From a virus: a stretch of DNA of 64,000 nt. The stretch's first letter is position 1, and each line of letters opens with the position of its first letter. Made by a program: the position numbers and the translations under genes. Positions 1 through 64,000 of this stretch are shown piece after piece. The stretch covers positions 7,335 through 71,334 of the IMG/VR virus record IMGVR_UViG_3300009550_000013. One strand, 5' to 3'. The notes beneath the pieces are model-generated. The model had not been told where the DNA came from and searched no databases. It was given only the letters and a program-made list of their open reading frames with translations.

Positions 1-2
1 AA

Positions 3-1673
3 TATAGAGGTGAATTTGAGGAGAGAATGAAAATGATTGTTGATGAATTAAAGACGTCACCAAATATTATTGTTTTTGTAGATGAAATTCATACTATCGT
101 CGGTGCAGGAGGAGTAAGTGGCTCTTTAGATGCAAGCAATATTCTTAAGCCAGCACTTGCTAGAGGTCAAGTACAATGCATAGGTGCAACTACACTTGAT
201 GAGTATAGAGAAAATATCGAGGAAGATGGTGCATTAACTAGAAGGTTTCAGGAGGTATTCATAGACCCTCCTTCTTCTGAAGAAGCAGTAGAGATACTTA
301 TGAAAATAAAAGAATCTTATGAAGACCATCACAACGTAGTTTATGATGATGCTGCTATTACTGCATGTGTAAGATTAAGTGAAAGATATTTAAAAAGTAG
401 AGAGCTTCCAGATAAAGCTATTGATTTATTAGATGAAACTGGAGCTAGAAAAAACTTAGCAGATGTTAAAGTTCCACCAACTATTAAGAAGTTGGAAGAA
501 GAACTTGCAAAATGTGGAAATGATAAAAATGCTGCAGTTAAAAAACAAGACTACGAAAAAGCTGCATATTGTAGAGACCATGAAATAGAAATAAGAAAAA
601 AGATAAATCTTGAAAATAAAAAATGGGAAGATTCTCTTAAAAAGAAAAAAAGACCTGTAACTGAAGAAGACGTTGCTGAAACTATTTCTCTTCAAACTGG
701 AATTCCTTTAAAAAGACTTGCTGGAGATGATTTATCAATGGTTCTTAAAATGGAAGATGAATTAAAATCTAATATAATAGGCCAAGACAATGCTATTGAA
801 ACTCTTTCTAGAGTGATTAAAAGAACCAGAGCAGGGGTAGCGTCTCATAATAAACCAACTGGAAGTTTTATGTTTTTAGGACCTACTGGAGTTGGTAAGA
901 CACAGACTGTAAAAGCACTTTCAGATTATTTATTTGGAGATGAATCTGCTTTCATAAGAATAGATATGTCAGAGTATCAAGAAAAATTTAATGTTAGTAG
1001 ATTAGTTGGTTCACCTCCAGGATATGTTGGTCATGAAGAAGGAGGTCAATTGACTGAACAGGTTAGACGTAAACCGTATTCTGTAGTATTATTTGATGAA
1101 ATAGAGAAAGCACATCCTGATGTATTTAATATATTGTTACAAGTGTTAGATGAAGGTAGATTAACAGATTCTCTTGGAAGAACTATTGATTTTACAAATA
1201 CTATTATTGTACTTACATCAAATGTTGGAGCTAGAAAAATAGCAGACTTCGGTACTGGAATAGGTTTTCAATCTAAAAAAGAAGCAGCACATCATAATGA
1301 AAAAATAGATAGTATCATTAAGAAAGAACTTAAAAATAAATTTAGTCCCGAGTTTTTAAATAGACTCGACGATATTGTATTATTCGATCAGCTTTCTGAA
1401 GATAACATTTTAAAAATTGTAGAAGTAGAGTTGAAAGACTTTATGGAAAGAATGTTAGAAATAGAAATTGAAGTTTCTTTAGATGATGCAGCCAAAAAGT
1501 TTTTAGCAAAAGAAGGTTATGAACCAGCATACGGTGCTAGACCTTTAAAGAGAGCTATTCAAAATCACGTTGAAGATTTATTAGCAGATGCTATAATAAG
1601 AGGTGATGTCAAAAAAGGTTCTAAAATTAAAATCGTAAAAAAATCTAAGGATATTAAACTTTCTATAAAATAA
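3..1673 (+). CDS. clpC: ATP-dependent Clp protease ATP-binding subunit ClpC (5' end lies before the window)
   Basis: Frame is open from base 3 (YRGEFEERMK). NBD1 Walker B VFVDEIH, UVR-type middle domain (AVKKQDYEKAAYCRD), NBD2 Walker A GPTGVGKT, pore loop GYVG, FDEIEKAH, ClpP-docking GIGF loop, GARPL. Confidence 0.93.
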   Translation, partial: YRGEFEERMKMIVDELKTSPNIIVFVDEIHTIVGAGGVSGSLDASNILKPALARGQVQCIGATTLDEYRENIEEDGALTRRFQEVFIDPPSSEEAVEILMKIKESYEDHHNVVYDDAAITACVRLSERYLKSRELPDKAIDLLDETGARKNLADVKVPPTIKKLEEELAKCGNDKNAAVKKQDYEKAAYCRDHEIEIRKKINLENKKWEDSLKKKKRPVTEEDVAETISLQTGIPLKRLAGDDLSMVLKMEDELKSNIIGQDNAIETLSRVIKRTRAGVASHNKPTGSFMFLGPTGVGKTQTVKALSDYLFGDESAFIRIDMSEYQEKFNVSRLVGSPPGYVGHEEGGQLTEQVRRKPYSVVLFDEIEKAHPDVFNILLQVLDEGRLTDSLGRTIDFTNTIIVLTSNVGARKIADFGTGIGFQSKKEAAHHNEKIDSIIKKELKNKFSPEFLNRLDDIVLFDQLSEDNILKIVEVELKDFMERMLEIEIEVSLDDAAKKFLAKEGYEPAYGARPLKRAIQNHVEDLLADAIIRGDVKKGSKIKIVKKSKDIKLSIK

Positions 1674-1681
1674 TCATATAA
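1656..1681 (+). promoter_or_regulatory. Putative promoter, class AAAC-N15-NATATAA
   Basis: AAAC-15 nt-CATATAA about 20 nt before the ATG at 1701; the same spacing recurs at five other gene starts. Confidence 0.6.
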
Positions 1682-1700
1682 TTTATATAAATTAATTATT

Positions 1701-2651
1701 ATGAAAAAAGTTAAAGATAGAACTTTAAACGAAATTAGACAAACTAAAGACTCATATTATACTGTTAAAAGCGAATCAACCAACAGCTTTTCAAAAGTTT
1801 TTAGAGATAATTTACAAACAATTAGTGGTGAAACTTCTCCTAGAGGTTTAAAAGTCAAAGAAAAAATCTTTGGTCAAATGACAATAGACCCTTTACGTCC
1901 TATTGCTGATTTTGAATCAAGGCCTTTTAATTGGAAGTATTTTGCAGGTGAATTAGCATGGTATTTAAAGAAAGATAGAGATATCGACTACATAAATAAT
2001 TTTAGTTCATTTTGGAAAGGTATTACAAATACTGGGACAAATGAAATAAATTCTAATTATGGCTCACTAGTATTTAATGAACAATTAGAATGGGTTGTTG
2101 ATAGTCTTGTAAAAGATAGAGATAGCAGACAGGCTATTATGTTTTTCAATAGACCTGAATTTCAGTTTGAAGGTAATAAAGATTTTGTATGTACAATGTA
2201 CGCTAATTTCTTTATTAGAGATAATAAACTCCATATGAAAGTTCAAATGAGATCGAACGATATGTTTTATGGTCTTACATTCGACGCACCTTTCTTTTCT
2301 TTCCTACATCAATCAGTTTATCGTTTAGTATGGTCAGAAAGAATGAAGAATGGTGGTCATGCAAATGATGAGGTATTAGAGTTAGGTAACTATTATCATT
2401 TTGCAGATAATTTACATTTTTATGAAAGACATTTTGACTTAGCAGATAAAATTATTGATGGAGATAAATATAATGATTATGGTCTTAAATTAAAATATCC
2501 ATGGTTTACTTTTAAAGATGGTCAAATTGTAATGACGGTTGAAGCGGTTACTTTTTTAAAAGAAATTGACATGTATGTCAATTCAACTAATTTTAAAGAT
2601 TTAGACCAAGCCCATTGGAAAAGTATTATTGAAGACTATTTTATTATTTAA
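1701..2651 (+). CDS. Thymidylate synthase-family enzyme, most like T4 gp42 dCMP hydroxymethylase
   Basis: EINSNYG, DSRQAI, RPEFQF, DFVCT (catalytic Cys), MRSNDMFYGLTFD (Asp where ThyA has Asn), LHFYERHF; this matches the T4 gp42 pattern as I recall it. Confidence 0.8.
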   Translation: MKKVKDRTLNEIRQTKDSYYTVKSESTNSFSKVFRDNLQTISGETSPRGLKVKEKIFGQMTIDPLRPIADFESRPFNWKYFAGELAWYLKKDRDIDYINNFSSFWKGITNTGTNEINSNYGSLVFNEQLEWVVDSLVKDRDSRQAIMFFNRPEFQFEGNKDFVCTMYANFFIRDNKLHMKVQMRSNDMFYGLTFDAPFFSFLHQSVYRLVWSERMKNGGHANDEVLELGNYYHFADNLHFYERHFDLADKIIDGDKYNDYGLKLKYPWFTFKDGQIVMTVEAVTFLKEIDMYVNSTNFKDLDQAHWKSIIEDYFII

Positions 2652-2653
2652 TT

Positions 2654-62482: not shown

Positions 62483-63030
62483 TTTTAAATAGTAGAAATA
62501 ATTTATTTGATTTTAGATTCCCTAAAAATTTTATACCAGCAGAAGTAGCTGAAAAATACAAAAGCTATTTACATAAAATACCTGGTAATATGTTAGAAAA
62601 TCCTATAGATTTTATTAATTACACAATACAAGAAGTAAATTTACCAGGAATAAGTTTCGACCCGGTAGAACAGGCTGATAATGACGGAACTGTAAGATAC
62701 CATAGAGGTAGAATACCAATTCAAAATACAATTGAAAGACAATTTACTGTAAAATTTCAATTGTTAGACGGTTACATAAATTATTGGATATTAACCGATA
62801 CTCTTTTACATTACTATGCAGATCAGACATTAGAAAAATATATACCGGATGTAAAATTAAGAATATTAGATGCGGAAGGTTTAGGTTTGGCAAGTATACA
62901 GTTTGAAAAACCTATCATGAACTCAATATCAGACTTAAATTTAAACTTAGCTGAAAATGTAGCAGAATTTAATACATTTGATGTTAATTTTTACTATAAT
63001 AAATTTAGTATAAAAATAGACATAGATTAA
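62479..63030 (+). CDS. Tail tube-fold protein (T4 gp3 tail terminator-like)
   Basis: YTIQEVNLPGISF...FTVKFQL...NYW...FDVNFYY. Confidence 0.62.
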   Translation: MILNSRNNLFDFRFPKNFIPAEVAEKYKSYLHKIPGNMLENPIDFINYTIQEVNLPGISFDPVEQADNDGTVRYHRGRIPIQNTIERQFTVKFQLLDGYINYWILTDTLLHYYADQTLEKYIPDVKLRILDAEGLGLASIQFEKPIMNSISDLNLNLAENVAEFNTFDVNFYYNKFSIKIDID

Positions 63031-63045
63031 ATAAATATATAAATT

Positions 63046-63414
63046 ATGAAAACATTTGTAAAATACTTAGAAGAAAATAAAGTTACAAAAGAAGAAATGA
63101 GCCTTTTAACAGAAGGTCTTCAGCAGGAATGGACTCCTGAATTAGAATCTAAAGTAGACGAAGCAGTTGATGCTTTTCTAAATGAATACAGAAATGAAAA
63201 TGGAGAAATTGATTTAGAAAGATTTAATAATGAAGTTACTAATGAAGGATTTTTTGGTTCTATTATAGGTGGTCTAACTGGTTTTGCATTAGGTAAATCT
63301 CTTGGTAAAATGATAGCTAAAGTATTAGGTATAAATAAAGGAGTACTTTATGATTTATTAACTTCTAGACTTGTAGGTACCGCTTTAGGAGCTGTTATAG
63401 GTAAAAGACTATAA
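63046..63414 (+). CDS. Protein with T4 internal-protein-like N-terminus and glycine-zipper C-terminus
   Basis: MKTFVKYLEE; NEGFFGSIIGGLTGFALG...GTALGAVIG. Confidence 0.65.
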   Translation: MKTFVKYLEENKVTKEEMSLLTEGLQQEWTPELESKVDEAVDAFLNEYRNENGEIDLERFNNEVTNEGFFGSIIGGLTGFALGKSLGKMIAKVLGINKGVLYDLLTSRLVGTALGAVIGKRL

Positions 63415-63415
63415 T

Positions 63416-64000
63416 ATGAATTTTATTACTATTGATTTTTCTCTTAATTCCCCGGGTATATGCATATTTAATGATAAGAGTAAAAAATACCATTTTATTT
63501 CGTATGTTAAAAGAAATGGTTCTAAAAAGGCTATAAAATTACAAGAAGAATTGGGAATGTTAAAAGAGGTTACTCTTGTATTTCAACCTGATTTTGAAAA
63601 AGAATTAGATTATTCTAGTGTTGAGTTAGCTAAAATAAAAAGATATGATGTGATGTCAAATGATATCATTAATCTTATTACTCAAAACACATTTAAAGAA
63701 GACGGTTATATGATAGCCTTTGAAGGAGTAAGTTATGGTTCTAAAGGAGGAACTAACAATATTATTGATATGGCAAGTGCTGCTTCTATTCTTAAGATAA
63801 AACTTCTTAAATATTTTAAACCTGAAGATATTCAAACAGTCTCCCCTGCAACAATTAAAAAACATGCTGGAAAAGGTAATATGAATAAGAGAACTCTTTG
63901 GGACGTCTTTGTTGAAAATAGAACGGGAGAGGAATTTCTAGAAGAGAATAATTTTTGGAAGTTCTCGAAAAAACTTGAAGTGGGTAAGTCTGTTCCTAAA
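63416..64000 (+). CDS. RuvC-like Holliday junction resolvase (3' end beyond the window; not in the ORF track)
   Basis: MNFITIDFSLNSPGIC...IAFEGVSYGS...VSPATIKKHAGKGNMNK; frame open to the window end. Confidence 0.7.
   Translation, partial: MNFITIDFSLNSPGICIFNDKSKKYHFISYVKRNGSKKAIKLQEELGMLKEVTLVFQPDFEKELDYSSVELAKIKRYDVMSNDIINLITQNTFKEDGYMIAFEGVSYGSKGGTNNIIDMASAASILKIKLLKYFKPEDIQTVSPATIKKHAGKGNMNKRTLWDVFVENRTGEEFLEENNFWKFSKKLEVGKSVPK

Follow-up and report, generated by a model that had tools for sequence, protein, structure and literature searches.

The stretch of viral DNA analysed here (the window, 64,000 nucleotides) comprises bases 7335–71334 of the 71,334-bp contig IMGVR_UViG_3300009550_000013 (labelled G000). 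Two of its features are our main subject: the tetranucleotide GATC, which is strongly depleted and survives almost exclusively at sites with a cytosine one or two nucleotides to their 5′ side on either strand, and a gene of the thymidylate synthase superfamily that most resembles gp42, the deoxycytidylate (dCMP) hydroxymethylase of phage T4. The contig has a GC content of 31%, is ~95% coding and holds all but three of its called open reading frames (ORFs) on the + strand; CheckV puts the completeness of the record at ~26% of a genome, with ~74% unseen. A megablast search with 24 kb of the contig against a phage collection gave no match. In the phage collection, the terminase-like protein had its matches exclusively among jumbo and mega-phages, most of them phages of Bacteroidota (Prevotella Lak phages, Tenacibaculum, Chryseobacterium and Flavobacterium), the top match being an uncultured 462-kb phage with 39% identity. 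The public runs that contain the sequence (assembled contigs) are marine metagenomes only. Judged by these matches, G000 represents part of the genome of an uncultured jumbo phage of marine origin, and the terminase points to a host among the Bacteroidota. For the comparisons below, G000 is lineage A, and its relatives are lineage B (G001, 46 kb), lineage C (L029, 21.7 kb) and lineage D (G009, 236 kb, 77% complete).

Table 1. Sites and genes discussed in the text, in window coordinates.
Feature	Position	Strand	Remarks
Surviving GATC (39)	1..64000		all with C at −1/−2 or G at +1/+2
CGATC (xxC-GAT-C)	25557..25561	+	G000 atCGATCcta vs ATAGACCCTA (G001, L030), ATAGACCCAA (L029); A-GAC-C in relatives
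CGATC	30175..30179	+	G000 agCGATCcct vs AGTGACCCAT/AGTGACCCAC (G001, G002, L030, L029, G004); T-GAC-C in relatives
CGATC	42191..42195	+	G000 caCGATCcga; lineage C keeps CGATC (G004, L029 CACGATCCAA); lineage B has T-GAC-C, CATGACCCAA (G001, G002, G003, L030)
Two CGATC (GATC at 52409, 52454)	52408..52457	+	52409: aaCGATCcgt vs AATGACTCAT; 52454: aaCGATCaat vs AATGACCAAT (G001, G003); T-GAC in relatives
Divergent thymidylate synthase superfamily gene, most like dCMP hydroxymethylase (T4 gp42)	1701..2651	+	PF00303, 60.6 bits
dCMP deaminase	26259..26690	+	PF00383 E 1.2e-23; phrog_174 E 1.6e-57
DUF2827 protein, putative glycosyltransferase	12540..13712	+	PF10933 E 7e-85, sole Pfam match
CATATG (two)	2232–2237, 56386–56391		
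Terminase-like protein	31091–32857		
Collagen-repeat protein	4902–6833		643 aa
Tail-fibre-like protein	9040–12465		1141 aa
RimK-like ATP-grasp ligase	15648–16712		
ClpB-like AAA+ protein	27–1673		
ClpP	2962–3654		
Hsp20	18119–18445		
DnaJ	19799–20611		

GATC depletion and the flank rule

The window contains 39 GATC, the exact number and positions listed in a preliminary description made from the sequence alone, and all of them (13 CGATC, 5 GATCG, 11 CAGATC and 10 GATCNG) follow the single rule proposed there: a C at −1 or −2 or, equivalently on the other strand, a G at +1 or +2 (‘protected’ sites). Over the whole contig the rule is met by 43 of 44 sites, the lone rule-breaker (gggGATCctg, contig position 7205) lying outside the window. 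These 44 sites compare with 195.2 expected from base composition, 175.6 from an order 1 model and 161.2 from a maximal-order Markov model, giving GATC the lowest ratio of observed to expected counts among all tetramers in G000. The earlier estimate that a random site would meet the rule about half the time agrees with the mean over all tetramers (0.49, standard deviation 0.08; the top other word, TCGC, reaches 0.79, or 31/39); it was slightly generous to chance when set against shuffled versions of G000 (0.42, maximum 0.51) or the related genome G005, in which GATC is undepleted (0.37, 230/626).

A plain positional background (16 palindromic tetramers with four flank bases) gave small p values for several frequent words with modest effects (TTAA, AGCT) and was discarded as a poor null, and we therefore relied on shuffling synonymous codons within each gene (500 shuffles), which keeps the proteins and the codon usage. 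Under this null 174.9±9.0 GATC are expected in G000 (minimum 146), made up of 73.0±6.3 protected and 102.0±7.4 unprotected sites, as opposed to the 43 and 1 that are seen. Unprotected sites are thus depleted ~100-fold and protected sites to ~0.6 of expectation. The purge stands against Markov and codon-aware expectations alike and the rule against the codon-aware one, and the claim that 39 out of 39 would hardly arise by chance holds.

By reading frame, the 44 sites divide into 27 GAT-Cnn, 14 nGA-TCn and 1 nnG-ATC, with 2 intergenic. GATC is removed by synonymous substitution. Aspartate is written GAT in 1137 of 1463 cases (0.78) if the codon after it begins with a base other than C; before a C-starting codon it is usually GAC (96/123 versus ~22% GAC otherwise), as had been noticed before, and there GAT is used at 26 of 54 positions in protected contexts versus 1 of 67 in unprotected ones (Fisher p 2e-10). 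Similar contrasts were obtained for G001 (22/39 versus 5/49, p 5e-6), L029 (14/25 versus 2/27, p 2e-4) and G009 (132/276 versus 44/300, p 4e-18). An alignable homologous stretch was available in relatives for 28 of the 44 sites, and at five orthologous codons the flanking C and the GAT change together, with CGATC in one lineage and T/A-GAC-C in another (Table 1).

Could a codon-pair, mutational or translational bias, with no selection by cleavage, produce this pattern? Some asymmetry between the strands would fit such a bias, since on the coding strand of G000 CTGATC occurs 0 times versus 11.2 expected and its reverse complement GATCAG 9 times versus 13.5; in G001 the figures are 1 versus 5.6 and 8 versus 10.1, and GATCCG is likewise favoured over CGGATC on the coding strand in the window and in G001. 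Neither G009 nor L029, however, repeats the CTGATC/GATCAG asymmetry. Taken as a whole, the rule is symmetric under reverse complementation, the codon-preserving null is off by more than 13 standard deviations for unprotected sites, and no effect is seen in G005, whose codon habits are the same. We consider an explanation by bias extremely unlikely.

Partitioning the sites of G000 by flank (observed versus codon-shuffle expectation) gave 19 versus 22.6 for C at −1, 24 versus 51.2 for C at −2, 1 versus 12.7 for CWG at −3 to −1 (W, A or T), 0 versus 19.2 for other sites with C at −3, and 0 versus 70.2 for sites with none of these. GATC with a G and no C in the 5′ flank occurs once versus 62.9 expected, and GATC with A/T-only flanks 0 times versus 38.6. 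Only C, and not G, A or T, 5′ of GATC rescues the site, and the near-absence of G-only flanks indicates that protection depends on which way round the G:C pair lies and not on a high GC content. Protection on the top strand (26 versus 38.9) and on the bottom strand (27 versus 40.3) is symmetric, which argues for an agent acting on duplex DNA. Among sites with a single protective half-site the ratios are 0.62 for NC, 1.03 for CG, 0.57 for CA and 0.15 for CT. This grading by the intervening base is what one might see if the phage DNA carried no modification and a host nuclease, or the competition between a nuclease and a methyltransferase, were strongly and intrinsically dependent on the flank, so that in ordinary DNA a C at −1 or −2 would make a site hard to cleave or very easy to methylate. 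Excluding C alone at two adjacent positions and on either strand would nevertheless be an odd readout on plain DNA, as the single G-only site illustrates.

The rule among related phages

As the rule had been devised on the window, it was tested out of sample on relatives. G001 (terminase 72% and DUF2827 protein 85% identical to those of G000) has 42 GATC versus 126 expected, of which 36 obey the rule (C at −1, 12 versus 14.8; C at −2, 24 versus 34.1; CWG, 4 versus 8.3; other C at −3, 1 versus 10.1; none, 1 versus 50.7). In L029, 21 of 25 sites do so, with 52.7 GATC expected. In the more distant G009 (proteins ~40–57% identical), where 301 GATC versus 701 expected make it the most depleted tetramer, the class ratios are 0.78 for C at −1, 0.64 for C at −2, 0.26 for CWG, 0.17 for other C at −3 and 0.20 for none. 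CWG-GATC makes up 7 of the 11 rule-breakers in lineages A–C versus ~12% expected, and may be a third protective context there; in G009 it is not special (0.26 versus 0.17–0.20). A second word obeys the same C-flank rule in G009: GATATC (loci L137–L148) occurs at 37 protected sites versus 40.2 expected and at 15 unprotected sites versus 40.0, 7 of these 15 being copies of one repeat (cttGATATCctt).

Other relatives behave differently. The 170-kb G005, which has a hydroxymethylase-like gene and served as control, contains 626 GATC versus 641 expected, with every class near 1; a run of near-identical units, each with cttGATCacc (~45 copies, loci L011–L019), represents a tandem or dispersed repeat in this genome. 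At the other extreme, G007 (a complete genome of 321 kb with terminal repeats) has 0 GATC versus 1013 expected and GAT at 0 of 197 protected aspartate contexts; it encodes only a canonical thymidylate synthase (287 bits), with no match to the hydroxymethylase-like enzyme of the window. Among 80 loci around ClpB homologs (the ClpB panel), 44 (within L043–L111, 756 kb) are free of GATC, where 758 protected and 991 unprotected sites are expected. With G007, they indicate that at least some of the GATC nucleases that these phages meet cut the site in every context. Eleven further loci of this panel are partly depleted, with the hydroxymethylase-like gene not in reach, and their pooled ratios are flat (0.36 protected, 0.30 unprotected). 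From these and from the purged relatives without the gene it follows that the flank rule is not general to GATC avoidance in these phages. Observed-to-expected ratios span 0 (G007), 0.27–0.46 (G000, G001, G004, G009) and ~1 (G005, L033–L038), and GATC avoidance thus differs by lineage; the selection against GATC that had been postulated is both strong and lineage-specific.

A second panel comprised the best 80 of 251 viral contigs encoding a relative of the hydroxymethylase-like protein (80 loci in 45 clusters). GATC is depleted (ratio <0.65) in 12 of the 45 clusters, and in six of these 12 the protected sites exceed the unprotected ones at least two-fold in their ratios: L224 (0.47/0.04), L211 (0.54/0.13), L217 (0.61/0.17), L231 (0.84/0.25), L006 (0.92/0.35) and L237 (0.48/0.21). 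The proposed tie between gene and rule is therefore partial: the rule is found in G009, which has the gene, and absent from the gene-less G007, whereas G005 has the gene and no depletion, and the other six depleted, gene-positive clusters lack the rule. Comparing gene content between loci with and without the rule yielded synteny differences only (DnaJ, a PolB-exo-like ORF, small ORFs) and no candidate modifying gene. As to the neighbourhood itself, ClpB, ClpP, Hsp20 and DnaJ (Table 1) form a chaperone/protease set in the phage, and the block of ClpB, hydroxymethylase-like gene, a 101-aa ORF and ClpP is kept in 20–23 of 23 related loci compared. Upstream of the window, the contig encodes a Rossmann protein of the LOG/TIGR00730 (SLOG) family (L028:4564–5220; PF03641, E 4e-33), annotated in PHROGs as DprA-like, with homologs in G011 and G005.

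GATC is not the only palindrome to be avoided. The most depleted hexamer of the window is CATATG (the NdeI site; 2 versus ~15 expected), which is also scarce in G001 (1 versus 9.2), G005 (6 versus 44.4), G009 (37 versus 72.5) and G014 (0 versus 11.1) and not depleted in L029, G011 and G012. No flank protection was seen for CATATG, and its depletion is probably a second signal of restriction avoidance. In the gene-bearing genomes the palindromes below 0.4 of expectation are GATC, CATATG, GATATC and TTATAA, in which G and C are absent or confined to the outermost positions, with GACGTC in G011 (3 versus 8.2) as the lone exception, a bias that lends some circumstantial support to a modified cytosine. 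The gene-less genomes G007 and G012 additionally avoid CCGG, GACGTC, GTAC and GCTAGC (in G007, GTAC 87 versus 658, CCGG 77 versus 312, GACGTC 0 versus 13.8). In the 39 kb of G014 at loci L165–L166, where GATC is hardly depleted, TTATAA (0 versus 21.6), GATATC (0 versus 9.0) and CATATG (0 versus 8.7) are all missing.

Candidate genes and a possible mechanism

That the window encodes a gp42-like enzyme is confirmed by comparison with solved structures: the closest relatives of the protein at 1701..2651 in the PDB are T4 dCMP hydroxymethylase (1B49, E 5e-19) and the CMP hydroxymethylase MilA (5B6D, E 7e-15), as opposed to E 1e-8 for the best true thymidylate synthase, and the protein scores below every NCBIfam ThyA cut-off (38.9 versus 327 bits). 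Identity to T4 gp42 is ~30%. Cys164 aligns with the nucleophilic Cys of the T4 enzyme and Asp195 with its Asp179, both being invariant in 11 of 11 aligned homologs; we take T4 Asp179 (Asp, not Asn) to be the position that sets base specificity for cytosine. G009 encodes both a canonical thymidylate synthase (283.8 bits) and the hydroxymethylase-like type (68.6 bits), and the G005 protein of this type is 57% identical to that of the window (53% by tblastn). From these resemblances the gene is a candidate source of C5-modified cytosine. The window also encodes a dCMP deaminase, and T-even phages likewise carry one.

The second gene that the preliminary description had put forward as a supplier of the mark, the putative glycosyltransferase, is not supported in this role. 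This DUF2827 protein found no relative in a PDB sequence search, and its single-sequence AlphaFold2 model (predicted local distance difference test score, pLDDT, 38.9) was too poor for a structure search. DUF2827 homologs are absent from the rule-bearing G009 (236 kb) and from G011 and present in the undepleted G005 and in G014. As the gene fails to track the rule across G009 and G005, its link to DNA marking is doubtful and we leave it out of the proposed GATC-protection system. The collagen-repeat and tail-fibre-like genes cluster with it, as does the gene for the RimK-like ligase. Bacterial members of the family have been proposed to glycosylate adhesins (excerpted text of bioRxiv 10.64898/2026.01.22.700529), and the cluster could be a module for fibre glycosylation rather than DNA modification.

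Ordinary methylation, independent of the hydroxymethylase-like enzyme, might protect the survivors if a phage or host methyltransferase had a target overlapping C(N)GATC or a short C(N)G. Overlapping methylation is a classic way in which a subset of restriction sites is protected, much of the G000 genome lies outside the contig, and D12-class (Dam-family) methyltransferase genes do occur in the group (G011:13844–14563; G006:44111–44863; G007:281112–281861; G008:56518–57246). As such genes are also found in genomes free of GATC, the D12 enzymes presumably have another target sequence, and for the same reason the one in G011 was dropped as the cause of the uniform depletion in that genome. By contrast, no D12, N6_N4 or C5 DNA methyltransferase was detected in G000, G001, G005 or the 236 kb (77%) of G009; a single methyltransferase site would hardly come in the two spacings CGATC and CNGATC (N being any base); and the totally purged relatives oppose C(N)G methylation by the host, if hosts are similar. 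We therefore judge protection by ordinary methylation to be quite improbable.

Another source of selection could be the phage itself, if it encoded a GATC cutter directed at host DNA and avoided those sites that its own modification leaves unshielded. T-even phages degrade cytosine-containing host DNA while sparing their own hydroxymethylcytosine (hmC) DNA, and the pattern requires only a GATC nuclease, whichever genome encodes it. The nuclease-related matches in the contig are, however, limited to UvdE, RNase HII, a homing-endonuclease-like ORF and a PolB-exo-like ORF, and GATC depletion varies among close relatives as host range would, making a phage-borne cutter very improbable.

The interpretation that we favour, with a probability of roughly 0.55, is that a GATC nuclease of the host drives the purge and that a cytosine-borne modification protects those sites with a C one or two nucleotides 5′ on either strand. 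Selection would come from a GATC-specific double-strand nuclease, most simply a Type II restriction enzyme, and the phage DNA would carry a modified cytosine made via the dCMP hydroxymethylase homolog. GATC would then escape cleavage only with a modified C one or two nucleotides 5′ on at least one strand or, stated equivalently, where G or NG comes directly after the 3′ C of the site itself; protection of one strand would suffice because a nick can be repaired. The cytosine modification, the restriction enzyme as agent and the steric logic are inferred from sequence patterns. The strongest argument is that a single kind of base, C, protects from −1 or from −2 and on either strand, which fits a bulky adduct and is awkward for direct readout, since a protein that reads plain DNA would seldom behave in this way. 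Biochemical precedents are consistent with this scheme: restriction endonucleases are described as ‘extremely sensitive’ to nearby base modifications (excerpt of PMC6449724), their inhibition by modified bases beside the sites is reported in portions of PMC6449724 and PMC7653180, and hemi-modified GATC resists MboI according to an excerpt of PMC11037411. Of the interpretation originally offered, selection against GATC, the context rule and the gp42-like gene are retained, and the DUF2827 protein as supplier of the mark is not.

Two sub-models, already outlined in that description, are about equally likely, and as they describe identical duplexes the sequence cannot separate them. In one (B), all cytosines would be replaced, and the enzyme would cope with a modified C at the rim of its site and not with a further one next to it. 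In favour of B, a dCMP-level enzyme would, by analogy with T4, lead to global replacement; protection drops sharply from −2 to −3; and C at +1 confers weak extra survival, G at −1 giving ratios of 0.27–0.75 versus 0.06–0.26 for A/T in G009. In the other (A), a basal hmC would receive a further modification only where it stands in C(N)G, and this hypermodification inside the site would block the enzyme. Three points speak for sub-model A: the rule applies to two C-ending words (GATC and GATATC), flank protection is not seen for CATATG, whose C is never before G or NG, and CWG-GATC is in excess in lineages A–C. That cytosine hypermodification is written only at C before G or NG, a C(N)G-specific activity not described in viruses, is a tentative proposal to which we give clearly less than even odds. 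Were it correct, the specificity might be read from the surviving GATC sites and, in G009, also from the GATATC sites, a prospect that is just as tentative. In an excerpt of PMC6449724, hypermodification of 5-hydroxymethyldeoxyuridine (5hmdU) is said to prefer a TS sequence context.

A number of observations weigh against modification-based protection. The protected classes are themselves depleted to 0.5–0.8, and in G014 GATATC is purged in both classes (protected 0 versus 5.1; unprotected 0 versus 3.5). The six depleted, hydroxymethylase-positive clusters that fail the rule include L218, purged in both classes (protected 0 versus 9.9; unprotected 1 versus 26.8), and L235, L197 (= G011), L229, L225 and L221, in which the rule is weak or absent; the 125-kb G011, of the L197 lineage, shows a uniform depletion of 0.35–0.46. 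Conversely, context effects of two- to three-fold are seen in L081, L083 and L096, where no hydroxymethylase-like gene was found, and a two-fold effect in the aspartate test of G012 (GAT 33/104 versus 30/202), in 170 kb of which no such gene was found. The rule-bearing lineages have common local synteny and may be one subclade, not fully independent, and the contigs of lineages B and C stop before the expected position of the hydroxymethylase-like gene. Lastly, a Pfam scan of 60 of the 78 ORFs on this contig, which represents ~26% of a genome, revealed no dCTPase, nucleotide kinase or DNA transferase.

Part of this speaks for the intrinsic flank preference of a host enzyme raised above: among hydroxymethylase-positive relatives the rule ranges from absent to strong, as dependence on the host's enzyme predicts, and weak context effects occur in relatives in which no such gene was detected (G012, L081, L083 and L096). 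Against such a preference stand the gene-less relatives purged in every context (G007 and the 44 GATC-free loci) and the unrelated word GATATC in G009, whose obedience to the same rule would need two enzymes sharing one quirk. On balance we regard intrinsic preference as unlikely, and the host nuclease combined with modified cytosine as the better account.

Comparison with known systems

Avoidance of sites and modification of bases are the two classic passive anti-restriction strategies, usually taken as alternatives, and here they are apparently combined, the surviving sites mapping at base resolution where protection works. If this is true, sequence alone could flag uncultured phages with modified DNA and predict either the sequence contexts that a modification requires or a restriction enzyme's steric footprint; it would also supply concrete substrates for biochemical tests. 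The choice of the GAT-C codon according to its flank would be a simple screen for viral metagenomes.

Akin to classic restriction-site avoidance, the word concerned is the most depleted palindrome, is removed synonymously and is avoided in a lineage-specific manner. Staphylococcus phage K-like phages facing Sau3AI have lost GATC completely, and among the relatives studied here G007 represents this classic, complete form. Unlike classic avoidance, the depletion in G000 is conditional on the flank, sites with C at −1 being nearly intact (19 versus 22.6) and unprotected sites nearly gone (1 versus 102). In enterobacteriophages the counter-selection of GATC is attributed to Dam/MutH, and classical restriction need not be invoked for it; here the host is probably not an enterobacterium, given the marine record and a terminase that groups with those of Bacteroidota phages, and we know of no flank rule described for the enterobacteriophages concerned.

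The gp42-like enzyme with its catalytic Cys and Asp, together with the dCMP deaminase, recalls the pathway by which T-even phages make hmC and glucosyl-hmC. In contrast to the T-even phages, identity to T4 gp42 is only ~30%, no dCTPase, kinase or T4-type glucosyltransferase was seen in the fragment, and the mark itself is predicted. To our knowledge, T4 itself does not avoid GATC. The avoided sites have C at their rim, as does CATATG, and NdeI, which recognizes CATATG, cuts glucosyl-hmC T4 DNA to completion (excerpt of PMC7653180). Some cutters of A/T-only sites are partly inhibited on T4 DNA, for which the same excerpt considers an indirect effect on neighbouring sequence possible (PMC7653180). 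A further likeness is to phages M6, ViI and phi W-14, in which a global hydroxymethyl pyrimidine (5hmdU) is hypermodified in some contexts, leading to context-dependent resistance (excerpted text of PMC6449724 and PMC7653180). Unlike the system proposed here, these are thymidine derivatives shown biochemically, as opposed to cytosine in C(N)G, recorded as an evolutionary footprint only. Both restriction avoidance and DNA with hydroxymethyl pyrimidines have precedents. Full-text literature searches returned no description of context-limited restriction-site avoidance, in which a flanking cytosine switches the avoidance off and a footprint at base resolution is left.

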